DNA of 64,000 nucleotides. Source: Mobula hypostoma. Lineage: Eukaryota. The notes under the pieces are model-generated. The model saw only the letters and a list, made by a program, of their open reading frames with translations. It made no database searches and was not told the DNA's origin. The stretch is taken from assembly GCF_963921235.1 (NCBI RefSeq), contig NC_086097.1, positions 158,846,001-158,910,000 on the forward strand. Direction: 5' to 3'. The stretch's first letter is position 1; the number at the start of each line of letters is the position of its first letter. A program made the translations under genes and the position numbers. Shown piece by piece: positions 9,901 through 62,569 of the stretch.

Positions 9901-10520
9901 GCCATGGATGGACATATCGAAATGGGAATAGGAAGTGGAAATAAAATGGGTTTAATTCCACTTTAATTTCCCATTTTAATTTCATTTCCCAATGCCATTC
10001 TGATATGTCCGTCCATGGCCTCCTCCACAGTCGTGATGAAGCCACACTTAGGTTGGAGGAACAACATCTTATATTCCGTCTGAGTAGCCTCCAGCCTGAT
10101 GGCATGAACATCGATTTCTTAAACTTCTGGTAATACTCCCACCCCTTCCCTCTTCACCATTTCCCATCCCCTTTTCCCTCTCTCACCTTATCTCCTTGCC
10201 TGCCCATCGCCTTCCTCCGGTGCTCCTCCCCCCTTTTCTTTCTTCCATGGCCTTCTGTTTCTTTCACCAATCAACTTCCCAGCTCTTTACTTCATCCCTC
10301 CCCCTTCAGGTTTCACCTATCACCTGGTGGTTCTCTCTCCCCTCCCTCCACCTTTCAAATCTACTCCTCAGCTTTTTTTCTCCAGTCCTGCTGAAGAGTT
10401 TCGGCCCAAAATGTTGACTGTACTCTTTTCCGTAGATGCTGCCTGGCGTGCTGAGTCTTCCAGCGTTTTGTGTGTGTTGCTCAGATTACCAGCTTCTGCA
10501 GATTTTCTCTTGTTTGTGAT
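9900..10520 (+). mobile_element. Penelope-like element 3' fragment with a short inverted 5' duplication
   Basis: GIY-YIG C-terminal coding remnant (MSVHGLLHSRDEATLRLEEQHLIFRLSSLQPDGMNIDF), pyrimidine-rich UTR, and a decayed hammerhead at about 10383-10420. 9900-9951 is an inverted copy of about 9969-10020. Confidence 0.8.
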
Positions 10521-29429: not shown

Positions 29430-30054
29430 GATCTGAAGATGCTGGAAATTCTGAGCAACACACAAAAAATGCTGGAGGAATTCTGCAGGTCACTCTTCAT
29501 CTATGGGGGAAAATGAATAGTCAATGTGACAGGCCAAGATCAAGCAGATAACCTTCATCTCTTTTGTCGCGATGAGGCCACACTCAGGTTGGAGGAACAA
29601 CATCCTATATTCCATCTGAGTAACCTCTAACCTGATCACATGAACTTCGATTACTTGAACTTGCAGTAATGCCCCCACCACCTTCACCATTCCCCATTCC
29701 CATTTCCCTCTCTCACCTTATCTCCTTACCTGTCCATCACCTCCCTCCTGTGCTCTTCCACACTTTTCTTTCTTCCAAGGCCTTCTGTCCTCTCCTTTTA
29801 GATTCCCCCCTTCTCCAGCCCTGTATCTCTTTCACCAATCAACTTGCCAGCTCTTTACTTCATCCTTCCCCCTCCTGGCTTCACTTATCACCTTATGTTT
29901 CCCCCTCCCTTCCCCCCAGCTTTTAAATCTACTCCTCATCTTTTTTTTTCTCCAGTCCTGCTGAAGGGTCTCGGATTGAAGCATCGACTGTTTACTCTTT
30001 TCCATAGATGCTGCCTGGCCTGCTGAGTTCCTCCAGCATTTTGTGTGTGTTGCT
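29430..30054 (+). mobile_element. Penelope-like 3' fragment with an inverted copy of its 3' end at the 5' side
   Basis: RDEATLRLEEQHP remnant at about 29568 and a decayed hammerhead at about 29953-29990. 29430-29540 is an imperfect inverted copy of the 3' terminus. Confidence 0.8.
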
Positions 30055-37699: not shown

Positions 37700-37796
37700 C
37701 TTTGAAAGAATGCAAAGTTGTGGTGGAGTTTTGCTTTCTAGTCAAGGTTTGTGAGGTTTTTAATCACACATTTTTTTTAGAATATCTAATGGTTAG

Positions 37797-37994
37797 TGTT
37801 GTGTATGTGGCCTGGTTACACAACAATACTATTAATAAAAATGCTGGAGATGGGAGCTAAGGTTCATGGTTATTTACTGGCAGAAACCGAACTCAGCACA
37901 CATGTACAAATCAATATGCGCCTAATACCGCATTCAACGACGTGTTACTAAAACATAAAGTAGACCCTTATTATACTGTAAGCTCTACGGTACA
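37797..37994 (-). repeat. 3' LTR (198 bp)
   Basis: TGTTGTGTATGTGGCCTGG...ACGGTACA. About 16 substitutions versus the other LTR by manual count, and it lacks a 25-bp internal tandem duplication. Confidence 0.95.
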
Positions 37995-38007
37995 CTCCTC
38001 CCCTTTT
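37995..38007 (-). promoter_or_regulatory. Polypurine tract
   Basis: Minus strand AAAAGGGGAGGAG directly abuts the 3' LTR. Confidence 0.9.
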
Positions 38008-38172
38008 ATTTTAATAGTGTATCAACTGTTTTATTACTGGGGCACTATGCTAACAAATATGTTCACCCTTAACATACAAACACCTACCATTTGTTTACTT
38101 AGTAACTTAATACAAACGTTTATAATATCAAATTATAACAAGCCTTTTTTTTACTTTTGTTCTAAGACCTAT

Positions 38173-38228
38173 TTATAACTCAAGTCTCTGGGTGGGGGGG
38201 TCTTCTCTGCCTCTCCGGGTAATGTCTG
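38173..38228 (-). pseudogene. Residual C-terminal tail of gypsy Pol/integrase
   Basis: Reads RHYPERQRRPP..(frameshift)..QRLEL-stop, resembling the RxYPxRxRxPP tail typical of Mag-like integrases. Confidence 0.6.
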
Positions 38229-38336
38229 TCAATAAACTTGTTTGTCTTAATACAGATTTCCATATAAAAGTCATGAAAAGTTGACCTCTGAGCATAGGAA
38301 GTTAAGAAGATGTGCGCCTCCGACTTGCTAAGAGTT

Positions 38337-39268
38337 CTAGGCAGCAGATTGCCTCCGTATAATGAAGACTCCTCTGTGCAGCTGCCCTAGATATATACAC
38401 ATCTTTGTGCTATCACTTATCTTCCTTACCATATCTCATTTGTTCCATCTGAGTTGATTACACAGCCAATCTTCGTATTCTCCTTAGATTCCAAATAGAT
38501 AGCTTGACCTTTATGATACCATCTCTTATTGTAATATAACTTTCCATCTTCTATTTGTGCTTCATATCTTTGTGCTGGTGTTTCAGCAGGAGTGCTGGGA
38601 AGATGCTCAGGAGAAGACGGAGTTGCTGGTCTTTTCAGAGATTTAAACTTATTGCGAGTTTGCAGATCTTCCATTATCTGTTCATCTGTTAACAAGTAAT
38701 TTAACTGTGCAGGTGCAGGTTTTTATCTTTTGTCTGTAATTGGAACAGGGTCATTAGGTCCCCTTCTTAGTTTCCTAGTCATTATTAACTTTACCTCCAT
38801 AGAATCTCCTGTGAGTTCCATTGTTAGCCTCTCTTTCTCAATCATCTTTTTATTTTCTTCTAACTCAATCTTTTTATCTTCAAATTCCTTCACTGCTGCT
38901 TTCTTCTCTTTAATATACCTTTCCACCTATTCTGTCTCCAGTTGCAGAAAAAGCCCTGCATTTTGTATTCTTTCCTTGTATTGTTGATCTAGTTTCTTCA
39001 TCCTTTCCTGATACTCCTACAAAGAGCCTTCCTGTAACTGCTGTAGCTGTCTTTTCAGAGATGTCAATTTCTCCTGGTGCATCTGCTCTTTTACTTCCAG
39101 GTAGTCTTCATCATTCTGCTTATTGGCAATATCTGTCTCCCTTGCATCCTCTGTATTTTCATCCGAGTCGCAGCCACGGATACTGCATTCGTCCTCATCG
39201 TTGACGCTGTCTAGCTCCTCCTCGTTGTTGTAACAGTCGACAATGGGTGAGAGGAGAGCTGTGGACAT
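38337..39268 (-). pseudogene. SUDS3: Intronless SDS3 (Sin3 histone deacetylase corepressor subunit) retrocopy inside the LTR element
   Basis: Colinear from ATG (39268) to TAG (38337): MSTALLSP...[135 protein letters not shown]. These match vertebrate SUDS3 as I recall it. Stops at 39017-39019, 38927-38929 and 38723-38725; 1-nt frameshift near 38428. Confidence 0.95.
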
Positions 39269-40395
39269 CTTCCCTGCCGAGCTGCCCTCCTTTGTTGACA
39301 CATCTAGTGCCTTGATGGTGTGCCAATCCAACTGGATTTTACTGAGCCGTTCATGTCCCAGCAACGGTGGTCCTCCATTTTTCAGTACATAGAGGTTCAG
39401 CTGCTGTGTTTTGTCTCCGTAGGTCACTGTCACTTTACTTTTACCTTTGGGATGCACCTTCTGTCCTGTGTAAGTCTTTAGCAGTAGTTTAGTACATTTC
39501 AGAGGTATATAAGAAGACAGTTGTTTGTAGTCATGTACAAAGATCACTGTTAAAGCTGAGCCTGTGTCCAACTCCATTTTCAGTCTCACGCCTGCCACTT
39601 GTGGAGTGATCCATATTACTCTTCGATCATCTGTCTCTTTCACGCTGTGAAGTTGCAGACAAGACAATTCACTTCCGTCTGAGTCATTTTCATCAGAACT
39701 GCTTTCTTCCATGTTGTGTGCATTGTTGTGTTTTCCTTTCTGGCGTTTCTTGTTTCTCTGTATTCTTGTTCCTTCTTCTGCTGTTTACTAGCTTTGCATA
39801 CTCTGCCAATGTGGCCCTGTTTGCCACAGTTTCTGCATTCTTTGTCTTTAAACCAACAGTTATCTGGATCATGTGACCTGTTCCCATGCTGGTAACATTT
39901 CTGTCCTTCATTTCTGTTCAGTGACATTTTATTTGTGGCATATTCCAGAGATTTTTGTTGTATCTCAGAAGCACCCTGTACTGCTGTTGCCGTTGATATT
40001 GCAATGTTTAGCGCTTTTTCAAATGTAAGGTCTCTTTCACACAGAAGCTTCTTCTGTGTGGTTTCACAGTGCATGCCACACACCAACCTGTCCCTCAATG
40101 CGTCCGATAGACCTGCTCCAAATTGACGATGTTCTGATAGTTTGCACAATTCAGCACAATATTGAGAAATGCTTTCATTTTTTGCTCTGATTCTGACTGT
40201 GAAATTTAAATCCTTCAGCAATGACCAGTGGTTTGGGGTTTAAATGCTGTTGGAGAGTGTCTACTATTTGCTTGAACGTTTTATCAGCTGGCTTTTCAGG
40301 GGTGAACAAGCTCTGTAGCAGGCCGTATGTTTTTGCTCCCATAAGACGCTGGCTTTCTTTTCATCCTTAACACCACTAACCTCACAATATAACTC

Positions 40396-40606
40396 ATCAA
40401 AGTTGCTGGTGAACGCAGCAGGCCAGGCAGCATCTATAGGAAGAGGCGCAGTCGACGTTTCAGGCCGAGACCCTAGTCCTGACGAAGGGTCTCGGCCTGA
40501 AACGTCGACTGCGCCTCTTCCTATAGATGCTGCCTGGCCTGCTGCGTTCACCAGCAACTTTGATGTGTGTTGCTTGAATTTCCAGCATCTGCAGAATTCC
40601 TGTTGT
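40396..40606 (+). mobile_element. Palindromic Penelope-like mini-insertion (inverted pseudo-LTR) with a 14-bp TSD
   Basis: TCACAATATAACTC at 40382-40395 and 40607-40620. Perfect 80-bp inverted arms at 40395-40474 and 40486-40565. Confidence 0.92.
40475..40510 (+). ncRNA. Minimal type I hammerhead ribozyme motif of a Penelope-like element
   Basis: Stem I AGTC/GACT, core CTGACGA, stem II AGG-gtctcgg-CCT, GAAA, palindromic ACGT helix III, and cleavage triplet GTC. Confidence 0.8.
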
Positions 40607-41062
40607 TCACAATATAACTCCACTCTTTCAATGTAAGTTGCCCAGTCTTCAATGGCACTATCAAATGCTGTAATGGTTCCAATCATCACCATCTTTTTTA
40701 TGTTAATTAAGCCCCGTTCCCCCCTTATTTTCCTTTTTTGACTCGTGTCCCATTTGCTAGCACCACGAGCGCACTCTGTCTAGATGTGTGTGTGCCGCTC
40801 CTTTTTATCTCCCTTCTGGAGCAGGCAGACCCTCAGTCCCTGGGGGTCAGCGCCGGCCGTGGTCTCGGCTGGACGTGCTGTGGCTCCGACTGTGTCTCTT
40901 GGTCTCCCAACGTTCCCGACCCTGGCTGTGCTCCCGCTTCCTTTCAGACTCGCAGCCTCGCTCTGCCTCCTTCTCTCGCTCCTTGGCTCGTTCCTTGCAC
41001 TCTTCTTCTGAGTGTCGTTATCAATTAAAACACGGTGTTCCGATACGATGTAGGTTCATTAA

Positions 41063-41073
41063 CCTCGTCGCCA
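41063..41073 (-). promoter_or_regulatory. Primer-binding site complementary to the 3' end of tRNA-Ser(GCU)
   Basis: Minus strand TGGCGACGAGG, 3 nt inside the 5' LTR. Vertebrate tRNA-Ser(GCU) ends ...CCUCGUCGCCA. Confidence 0.85.
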
Positions 41074-41076
41074 ATG

Positions 41077-41299
41077 TGTTGTGTATGTGGCCTGGCTACA
41101 CAACAATGCTATTAATAAGAACACTGGAGACGGGAGCTAAGGTTCATGGTTCTTTACTGGCAGAAACCGAACTCGGCACACAAGTACAGATCAATATGCG
41201 CCTAATTGCGCATGCGCAATATGTGCCTAATAGCGCATTCAACAATGTGTTACTAAAACATAAAGTAGTCCCTTATTATACTGTAGGCTATACGGTACA
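41077..41299 (-). repeat. 5' LTR (223 bp)
   Basis: Direct repeat of 37797-37994 plus the extra 25-bp unit AATATGCGCCTAATTGCGCATGCGC. Confidence 0.95.
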
Positions 41300-44200
41300 G
41301 TCAGAAATGTTTAAGCCCATTAAACTGACAATAAATATTTTAGTACAGTTTAATAATATTGGCATTTATTAAATATAGTCAGTAAAATCACTTATAAAGA
41401 AATGAAAATTACCCCATGTTCCCCATTCTCCATTAAAATGAATAGAGTCTCGTATCCTACATCAGGTCTGTAATACTGGGGAATCCCAGCAAAATTAGGC
41501 TCCGTCGTTAGATTCTATGTGAAATCTGGTGATGGACAGAACAGTAGATAGAGAGTCAGCTCTCTTTCAGAAAGGCCTGGACTGGTGTATTTTGTTGCTT
41601 GAACCAAAAGAAATACCAAAGCTTTGTAGATTTTTGCAGATGATCTAAATAACATTTACAATGCTGATTGAGAGTTGCTGGGAATTTCAGTCTGCCCCTG
41701 TGGGTGATTTAAGAAGCTCACACTGCATCTTGAACTTTGTAAGCAAGCTACCTTGAGCTGTTTAACAAAAGGAATAAATAGCCATTATTCAAGATGCAAT
41801 GGTGCTTAAGAGCAGTGTGCTGTTACCAGGACACTGAGGAGTGATCAGCAAACAAGATGAGATGTTTAGCTTCAGATGGAACACTTGCAGAAGTTCAAAT
41901 AATTAGAAGGGATCCAATAAAATTCTCACTCGAAAACAATGCCCCGAGGCACTGTATAGAATGTATTGTGTGGAAAATCATCATTATTAAATGATTCATG
42001 TAATTTAAAGGAGAAAGGCATCATGATGTTCCTGTAAAACCGCCCCGCTATTCCTAAATATTAAAAAAGTACTGATCAGTCATCTTGTTACTGTATTCTA
42101 CTACCTACACATACGATTAGTTTATTTTTTTCTGCAGTCTGAACTGGAAGCAGAATTAGGCCATTTGAACTCTCTTGTTTGCTCCAACATTCAATATAAT
42201 CATGGCTGATCCTTTACCTCAGAACAACTTTCCTGCCAGCACCCATATCGCTTGATTCTCCAATGGCCAAAATACTTCCTGATTATAAATGGTGAACCAT
42301 TGCTCCTTCATTTCATCTACCTGACTGTTTAGAACCGACCACAGTTATATTCTACTTTGTTGTCCACATATATCATTTCTTCATTATTTTCCTGTTCTGT
42401 AGCCGCCAACACATCTCTTCTCATGCCCCGGAAATCTCCTTAACTTAATTTTATGCAGATAAAAGTTTTGTTCCTCTGTTCTTGCCAAAAATTCATTCCC
42501 ATTCCCCATGGAGCTCAGCTTTGTTACTCTGTTTGCCCTGGCTACATCCTTCACTGAGATCACTCTTTCACTGTTCTGTCTCTGTCTTTGTATACAGCTT
42601 CCCTTGACTGTCTGCACTCTATAATAATAACTCCTCCAACATTTCCCTGTTAGCTCATCCTACATAAGCTTTAATTTGTCTCACAATTTGTCATCCACAT
42701 GTGTCATGCTCAATTTTGCTGCCTTGTCACTCTTCACCTCGTGAACTCTTCATTGGTTTTCAAAGAGTTGAAAGCAGGAACATTTTCAGTTTGCTTCTTT
42801 ATTTGTCTGTTGGCTTACCCCTACATATCTTATGAACATATTTTAGTCTTGCATGATGGTGCATTTTTTTCCAGTGTTGAAACATTAATACTGTTTGCAA
42901 TTGCCAACAATCCATTGAACTTTAACAGACTAGCTGGCAGTTATCTTTTTTACATATTAAAATATTGTTGCTTAAATTATTTAGCTTTGTTCTGTTCTTC
43001 AAAAAAATCAGTATATACCAATGGTCCTGCAATCTTTCTTCTATCATCTGCTTTCACCTTGGTGAAGAACTTTTTTTTTAAAGAACAAGAAGTCATTGGT
43101 CTCAGAACACTTCCAGTATTTTTTTGTTTTTATTTTAAATTTTGAGCATCTGCATTTTAGATTTTTAACTTTGCTACCATGTTCTGGTATTGAACATATT
43201 TATTATATGAATGCAAAATTAAACATTACATTCTTTTGTTTTGTGTTAATTTGTATAAATTATCATTTCATATAAATTCCCTTTTGGCATATTTTGATTA
43301 CTTTTTATACTGATGAAAGTCAAAATATCTTGGAAAATATGCCTTTTTGCTAAAATCTGCAGAAGACTTGGTGCAAAGTGCCTCAGTATGCTTTCAACCA
43401 TCATGTGCAATTTTGTCAGAAGCCTATTAATAAAAACCACATTTCTGAATACTCATTGTAAACTATCCAGAAACCTGTCAGGATATTAGCATGCTAATTC
43501 ATTAATTGGACTAGAACACAGATTAAAAGCCAATCAATCCTCTGACGCAACTTTCCTGCCTTCATTTATAATTAATTTTTTGACTTTGAGAAAACCAACC
43601 AGGATGTTCTTTCCCACCCCTACCCTTCTCTAGCATCCAACTGCCATAATGCTGGGCTTGATATACCCCCACCCATGTTAAAGTTCTGTAAAGCATGTGA
43701 TCCCGGAAGAATTAGAGTAGTGCAGCAGAGTTAGGGGAAGGGTATCTTTTGGGAAAAATATGCTGCCAATTGTGTTGACGTAAAATGTTCAATTCATTGG
43801 GATCTGAGCATTTTAATGTGGAAGAGCAACTATCACATTGGCTATTGTGCACTACATCTTACCACACTACCAAAGCCTTTGGATTGTAATAGAACTGCTG
43901 TGTTCAAAACTTGAGAGGCAAATTTGTTCCTGAGTGACCACTTCGTTTATGATACTCCATTTGACAAAAGCAATTTTGATGTGAAAATAAATCATTCTTT
44001 TTTATTATACATTTAGTTTCCAATTTTTCATTAGCTTGAAAGCCGGAGGCTCCCTCATGAAACACCAATTTCAAAAAAAGGAGCTTTTCAGTTTTTGTAA
44101 TTTTTGCCATTAAAATATTTGAACTGGAACAAAAGAAGTATATGAAGAAATATGGTAGCTTAAACTAATCCAATTATAGCACCAGTCCATGCAATACTGA

Positions 44201-61718: not shown

Positions 61719-61930
61719 CTGTGAACAGGGTAAAGCAAGTAAAAAGCAGCACAAATATCCTAACACTGATTCGCACAAAGGCTGTGAAAAGAGAAATAAA
61801 CTTCCCACTATTATTAGGAAAAGTAAGAAAATGTATTGCTGATTTAACTAATTGTTTTATGGCCAGAAAAATGATAGTGAAAACTAAGCTATAGAAAATT
61901 TCATTTATGAAAAATGGGTAGAATATAATG

Positions 61931-62024
61931 ACGAAGGGTCTCGGCCTGAAACATCGACTGTACCTCTTACTAGAGATGCTGCCTGGCCTGCTGCGTTCAC
62001 CAGCAACTTTGATGTGTGTTGCTG
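61931..62024 (+). mobile_element. 94-bp Penelope-like 3' terminus with a 10-bp TSD
   Basis: GAATATAATG at 61921-61930 and 62025-62034. Same young subfamily as 40396-40606 (CTGCGTTCACCAGCAACTTTGATG). Starts inside the hammerhead core. Confidence 0.88.
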
Positions 62025-62569
62025 GAATATAATGTTGGACAGTTGATCTGTTTTTATCCATTTGGTGCTACCAGCCAAAACCAATTTCACCACTTTATCA
62101 TAAGAGATGGAGGAAATTAATAGTGGACCATTATTCCAGGAGAGAGGAAATAAATGATGTAAGTGTGTCTTTAATTCAATTACACAACCTTTCAAAACTA
62201 TCCTTATTGGAAGTTAAAAACCAAAACCAAGCATGAAAATAATTTAAAGAGTCAATGTAATGGGCAGACAGTCGGGGATTTGGCGTCTCTGTTACAATAA
62301 TCCTAATATACAAAACTCTGTGTTTATCATAAGCCCTTTTTTTCCATACACATTATGATTAATCTATGCCCAGAAGGATTTACAAACAAGGATGTTTGTG
62401 AATGCTGTTGCATTTAAAAGTACACAAGGTACGTGCAAGATTAAGAAAGGGTCAGAAGGCAGTGGAGGCCAAATCAGATGTTTAAACCAGATGTTCATAG
62501 GTTTTTCATTATAAGAGTGGCAAAGATTACAGGGAGAAGGATGGAAAATGGAGCTGAGAGGGAGAATAA

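Follow-up and report, generated by a model that had tools for sequence, protein, structure and literature searches.

In acutely transforming retroviruses, host coding sequence replaces pol in frame with gag, and the resulting gag-onc fusions are helper dependent. Capture of host mRNA by LTR retrotransposons was described by Tan et al. (2016; PMC5131818), who, in the sections drawn on here, report retrocopies in which an mRNA lies within a discontinuous LTR element, with switch points marked by microsimilarity (median, 6 bp) and with neither a poly(A) tract nor a target site duplication (TSD). These retrocopies can undergo further retroposition as nonautonomous elements. In crocodilians, the endogenous retroviruses (ERVs) CrocERV29 and CrocERV31 have captured KIT-ligand and nectin3, respectively, and v-Kit and RSV are cited alongside these captures in the available text (PMC4299795).

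Here, we describe a family of nonautonomous Ty3/Gypsy elements in the genome of Mobula hypostoma that carries the host gene SUDS3. The family resembles the gag-onc retroviruses in its in-frame replacement of pol, but its cargo shows no sign of selection or of a phenotype. Relative to the retrocopies of Tan et al., as covered by the same sections (PMC5131818), we observed the same capture features, microsimilarity at the junctions (7 nt at the 5′ end, 5 to 7 nt at class A 3′ junctions, and 0 to 3 nt at class B 3′ junctions), and further retroposition. In contrast, the SUDS3 coding sequence (CDS) is complete and in frame with gag-protease, there are two classes of 3′ junction, and at least 186 loci, probably about 400, are occupied, compared with two Drosophila retrocopies reported to have more than one insertion site. 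The crocodilian ERVs and the SUDS3 family are both old vertebrate LTR lineages that took up a host mRNA, exist in multiple copies, and share in-frame indels among copies; however, as far as that account extends (PMC4299795), the former are retroviruses whose cargo open reading frames (ORFs) are intact under purifying selection (nine for KIT-ligand), whereas the latter is a Gypsy family with pol replaced and in neutral decay. The mechanism of capture is known (Tan et al., 2016), and its scale here is unusual. Our literature search, whose reach excluded most subscription papers, found nothing on a SUDS3 family in Mobula, and the portion of a Greenland shark preprint at hand mentions retrogenes close to LINEs or LTRs without reference to this family. 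Parent, host, switch points, deletion, and recombination are all readable across its copies, which makes the family an extensive and well-resolved vertebrate example of LTR-mediated gene capture.

Structure of the chimeric element

The window analyzed here is a 64-kb stretch of the M. hypostoma genome, in which the element occupies positions 37797 to 41299 of the minus strand and represents one decayed copy of its family. A preliminary description made from the sequence of the window had proposed, in minus-strand order, an LTR, primer-binding site (PBS), gag, protease, intronless SUDS3 CDS with 3′ untranslated region (UTR), integrase tail, polypurine tract (PPT), and LTR; every part was found at its proposed place. 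The 5′ LTR (41077 to 41299, minus strand, as for all parts below unless noted) has TG...CA termini and contains a 25-nt internal tandem duplication, apart from which it is identical to the 3′ LTR (37797 to 37994) at 182 of 198 aligned positions. Flanking the element are the TSDs CTGAC (5′, 41300 to 41304) and CTAAC (3′, 37792 to 37796), which match at four of five bases and correspond on the plus strand to GTCAG and GTTAG, the 5-bp pair previously placed around the whole unit. The PBS follows the 5′ LTR (41063 to 41073); its sequence, TGGCGACGAGG, begins at 41073 and presumably matches tRNA-Ser(GCU). The PPT, which ends at 37995, precedes the 3′ LTR. TG...CA LTR pairs, a 5-bp TSD, and a PBS and PPT in these positions are all features of Ty3/Gypsy elements.

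The gag region (39790 to 40692, with an approximate end) contains zinc knuckles and is broken in the window copy. It is followed by the gag-protease linker and aspartyl protease (39288 to 39784; D-T-G at about 39568), which is in frame with SUDS3. The zinc knuckle and protease of this copy gave only weak Pfam matches (E value of 0.007, below curated cut-offs), and the protease frame was up to 62% identical to full Gypsy polyproteins (e.g., P0123), with named relatives that are K02A2.6-like. The element shares with K02A2.6-like or Mag-type Ty3/Gypsy elements a single gag-pol frame, short LTRs, a 5-bp TSD, and, in its relatives, the order protease (PR), reverse transcriptase (RT), RNase H (RH), and integrase (IN). 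Culex Mag elements have a Ser or Leu PBS and LTRs of similar size to those of the SUDS3 element, according to the part of the source consulted (PMC3286476). Judged on these sequence features, the relatives, LTR size, TSD, and PBS type would be consistent with the Mag lineage.

Downstream of the 5′ switch point, GGGCAGC (39281 to 39287), the SUDS3 CDS extends without introns from ATG to stop codon (38337 to 39268), with 24 nt (8 codons) missing near 38861. It is a pseudogene in the window copy, with three stops and one frameshift. Translated with X at stops, its frame matched Sds3 (PF08598) above the cut-off and shared 83% identity with the SDS3 protein of Mobula birostris. The CDS is followed by 113 nt of host SUDS3 3′ UTR (38224 to 38336), which runs to the 3′ switch point CAGAC (38228 to 38224; class A junction), and then by the last codons and stop codon of the parent integrase (38173 to 38228) and the parent 3′ untranslated region, including an A-run, together with the PPT (37995 to 38172). 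The preliminary description had put the two junctions at about 39285 and 38229, within a few bases of the switch points at 39287 to 39281 and 38228 to 38224.

A secondary fold-back insert of 211 nt (40396 to 40606, no strand assigned) lies within gag, flanked by 14-nt duplications at 40620 to 40607 and 40395 to 40382. It is private to the window copy; none of the other copies listed has it at this position. Across 40382 to 40620, the fold-back arms are 83 nt long and 99% complementary and lie inside the 14-nt duplication, and related pieces occur elsewhere in the window at about 61930 to 62030, 10380 to 10510, and 29950 to 30050. The repeat and these pieces may represent a LINE/SINE 3′ tail. 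An Rfam scan of the 64-kb window gave no match. An extra segment in the Hemitrygon akajei SDS3 annotation (P0009) translates like the same fold-back repeat and is probably a mis-annotated exon.

Host gene, parent element, and family size

The host gene was located with a peptide spanning the residues missing from the copies, which matched the genome exactly at a single place on contig C78, in an exon that has ag/gt borders. The last exon lies on the same contig, about 20 kb from the first located exon. These two host exons, with their splice borders, bear out the earlier contrast between an intronless CDS and a multi-exon host gene, with the intronless copy residing inside a discontinuous LTR element. 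When the end of host exon 1 was sought by pattern, three matches turned up, all of them on contigs other than the host one. A further host-exon peptide match (G000:C58:4449767-4449910; 81% over 48 codons, one stop) is neither a host exon nor a typical family copy and may represent a partial copy or a paralogue.

The parent element was recognized among matches to the protease: of 20 further matches, 16 ran into SUDS3 with the same 5′ junction and 4 ran into pol (4 of 40 protease matches were left unfetched). As the proposed alignment to an autonomous parent would have it, the pol-bearing copies part from the chimera and rejoin it at microhomologies common to host SUDS3. The relative P0123 has the domain order PR-RT-RNaseH-IN, and its full-length matches in the genome end at the 3′ side like the tail and LTR of the chimera. 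Mapped against these parents, SUDS3 takes the place of everything between about residue 405 of the relative and the final codons of integrase, leaving the chimera without its own RT, RNase H, and integrase, just as the preliminary description held in stating that the pol core was missing and SUDS3 stood in its place. The protease query yielded 1,246 candidates compared with 422 to 503 for SUDS3; 20 were examined, and the remainder may include derivatives with different cargo.

Pooled searches located the SUDS3 chimera at a minimum of 186 distinct loci on 32 contigs of the 3.48-Gb genome, so that what had been raised as a possible SUDS3-carrying family is a large one. First-look candidates numbered 503 in one search and 422 in another, and an overlap estimate, in which both samples lean toward better-preserved copies, gave a total of about 380 to 395 (i.e., about 400). 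The 40 SUDS3 matches that were scored all spanned nearly the full length, and the 39 other than the window copy itself showed 90 to 93% identity. Detailed comparison covered 51 distinct loci, obtained from 60 fetched after removal of duplicates and comprising those most similar to the window copy. The same 5′ junction was present at all 51, and of the 29 copies with two LTRs, 25 had TSDs matching at four or five of five bases, each in its own flanks, whereas in 4 the TSDs were mismatched at the element ends as called. The earlier proposal to count copies with identical junctions was thus answered by many loci that share the 5′ junction and differ in their TSDs.

Individual copies have been further rearranged. 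Several (L009, L014, L026, and L006) carry internal gag deletions or duplications, giving elements of 2.4 to 2.9 kb with intact TSDs, and in several the A-run downstream of the integrase tail is the site of private inserts. Comparison of 17 private inserts in the 51 copies with each other revealed no second cargo common to copies. One contig of run X19 spans the 5′ junction; this run is marked “probably DNA”, and such contigs cannot show transcription.

Junctions and the proposed route of capture

At the 5′ junction, parent and host share the 7-nt microhomology GGGCAGC, which lies in the SUDS3 5′ UTR on the host side. The parent side was read from four pol-bearing copies; the host side was read from 30 letters at the loose end of one contig from run X16, which we guess to be RNA. 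Contigs of runs X15 and X16 stop matching the chimera at 39287. At the class A 3′ junction, CAGAC (5 nt) is common to the host UTR and the last integrase codons of the parent, extending to GACAGAC (7 nt) with one parent copy; of four predicted parent 3′ ends, two fell outside the element and one was cut short. Class A accounts for 30 of the 51 copies. The UTR is longer in 18, of which 16 reach about 340 nt (class B), and 3 are unassigned. In class B, the parent sequence resumes 18 nt later, with a match of 0 to 3 nt. Because 18 nt of the parent occur in class A alone and some host letters in class B alone, neither class can be derived from the other by deletion only, and the two classes imply later recombination with helper RNA. 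The simplest reading is that class B is the older and that a subsequent switch onto helper RNA produced class A. Neither these classes nor the in-frame fusion of SUDS3 to gag-protease had figured in the preliminary description.

A 24-nt gap between two TGAGTT (6-nt) repeats of the host exon was found in 50 of 51 copies and 148 of 150 scored matches, whereas presumed mRNA contigs in three runs retain the 24 nt. No poly(A) or TSD bounds the SUDS3 cargo, as had been noted for the window copy: in both classes the capture ends mid-UTR while the host UTR continues. The A-run near 38150 was considered as a poly(A) remnant and rejected, since it is also present in a pol-bearing copy (L088) and is therefore parent sequence. 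Template switching is well supported by the microhomologies at both junctions, the mid-UTR stop without poly(A), and the common 24-nt deletion. The double template switch and mobilization in trans proposed earlier agree with the junctions, loci, and parents; however, a simple double switch is incomplete, as the 24-nt deletion and the two 3′ classes need further switches.

Common non-CpG variants (those in at least 8 of 49 copies) numbered 19 in 1 kb of gag-protease versus 2 in the SUDS3 segment, and none tracked the A and B classes, a pattern that fits one cassette moving among helper haplotypes and lends support to the later switch.

We propose that spliced SUDS3 mRNA was co-packaged with Gypsy element RNA and that reverse transcriptase jumped onto the mRNA within the SUDS3 3′ UTR. 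A return switch to the element would have occurred at the 7-nt match, shortly before the SUDS3 start codon, so that the cargo took the place of RT, RNase H, and all but the end of integrase, and a further slip between the TGAGTT repeats would account for loss of the 24 nt. Since the product kept its LTRs, PBS, and PPT, helper elements could have copied it in trans, presumably reaching about 400 sites in a single burst long ago, with continued recombination with helper RNA giving rise to the second 3′ junction and a mosaic gag. The SUDS3 cargo was most likely a passenger. As a whole, LTR-mediated capture of SUDS3 mRNA followed by trans amplification of a passenger cargo is very probably the correct account of the family.

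Decay of the cargo, alternative origins, and age of the burst

SUDS3 was in frame with gag-protease in 48 of 50 copies, and the gag start, protease, and SUDS3 start still shared one frame in 15 of 51, with frameshifts elsewhere scattered. On this basis, the source element probably encoded a Gag-protease-SUDS3 polyprotein. After insertion, every copy examined decays neutrally. Non-CpG nonsynonymous changes numbered 223, compared with 222.7 expected from synonymous and UTR rates, and stops numbered 22 versus 20.4 expected, in a class-matched comparison with host exons that covers two exons and 252 coding nt. Five of 51 copies were free of stops in SUDS3 at a mean of 2.27 stops, which fits a Poisson process, and no open frame in the 150 scored matches exceeded 560 amino acids, which is less than the full fusion. 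Thus, class-matched counts, stop counts, and open frames gave no indication of purifying selection or a preserved ORF in this set, from which younger or preserved copies could have escaped through its selection by similarity to the window copy. One result ran against neutrality: pairwise Nei-Gojobori dN/dS was 0.58 for SUDS3 and 0.54 for gag-protease. We rejected this ratio as a test of selection because it ignores transition and CpG bias, to which we attribute the values below 1 given that the class-matched test shows no deficit.

An alternative with the same origin holds that the cargo was useful: the Gag-protease-SUDS3 polyprotein would have been made and cut, and the shortened SUDS3 would have interfered with Sin3/HDAC silencing, aiding the burst. 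The full CDS in frame across nearly all copies is also what a selected cargo would look like. The copies that retain all three landmarks in one frame, amid otherwise scattered frameshifts, and the lack of a stop common to most copies speak for this alternative too. The 24-nt deletion falls inside the coiled-coil region solved as 4ZQA, described as the dimerization region in the portion of the source used (PMC8800102), so that a register-shifting deletion there might have made SUDS3 a decoy against Sin3/HDAC repression. Were this so, SUDS3 would be an element-encoded antisilencing factor stolen from the host, which would explain the hundreds of copies. However, where the family differs from the host protein in all or many copies (P187T, S263G, S43R, and the 8-residue deletion), the changes are nonsynonymous, as are both variants shared within the family SUDS3. 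Among shared gag-protease variants outside residues 231 to 251, 12 of 25 are synonymous. An in-frame fusion has a prior chance of one in three, a benefit in trans would serve helpers equally, and a protease stop at a CpG is present in 22 to 23 of 50 copies (TGA versus CAA, P = 0.05). The literature found contained nothing on a role of Sds3 in silencing endogenous retroviruses. We therefore consider both a useful cargo and its decoy form improbable, and a role for the cargo is unsupported. The family does allow one to ask whether a captured silencing factor was ever of help to the element carrying it.

Even less likely is that SUDS3 entered a Gypsy element as a LINE-made processed pseudogene and that pol, together with the poly(A) and TSD of the insertion, was deleted later, before amplification. 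LINE-type insertions are frequent in the copies as private inserts, and the class B junction has little microhomology, but this route requires two precise deletions, the cargo ends mid-UTR in both classes while the host UTR continues, both ends join the parent at microhomologies, and the downstream A-run belongs to the parent (L088). Assembly artefact or segmental duplication, for which no fact speaks, is refuted by TSDs and flanks that differ on 32 contigs, by contigs from a run labeled as another organism that bridge the 5′ junction (X10 records 4 and 5), and by six “SDS3-like” proteins annotated in two Mobula species that carry the family deletion and the P>T and S>G marks; we regard it as having almost no probability. 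Such surplus “SDS3-like” genes in Mobula annotations are explained as retroelement cargo.

Under the favored reading, capture of the mRNA by an LTR element, the burst of copying is old, as LTR pairs within copies differ by about 10% (median K2P, 0.097; range, 0.064 to 0.153; n = 28). Median identity of the copies to the last exon and UTR of the host gene was 94%. No mutation rate for rays was found in the literature; a shark rate of 7 × 10⁻¹⁰ per base per generation, as given in the accessible part of its source (PMC10587355), suggests great age, with no figure in years attached. The tree of copies was star-like (terminal, 2.18; internal, 0.14). Three well-supported pairs stood out on it (L048/L056, L020/L057, and L010/L054), two of them on one contig each, possibly reflecting local duplication or short-lived source copies.
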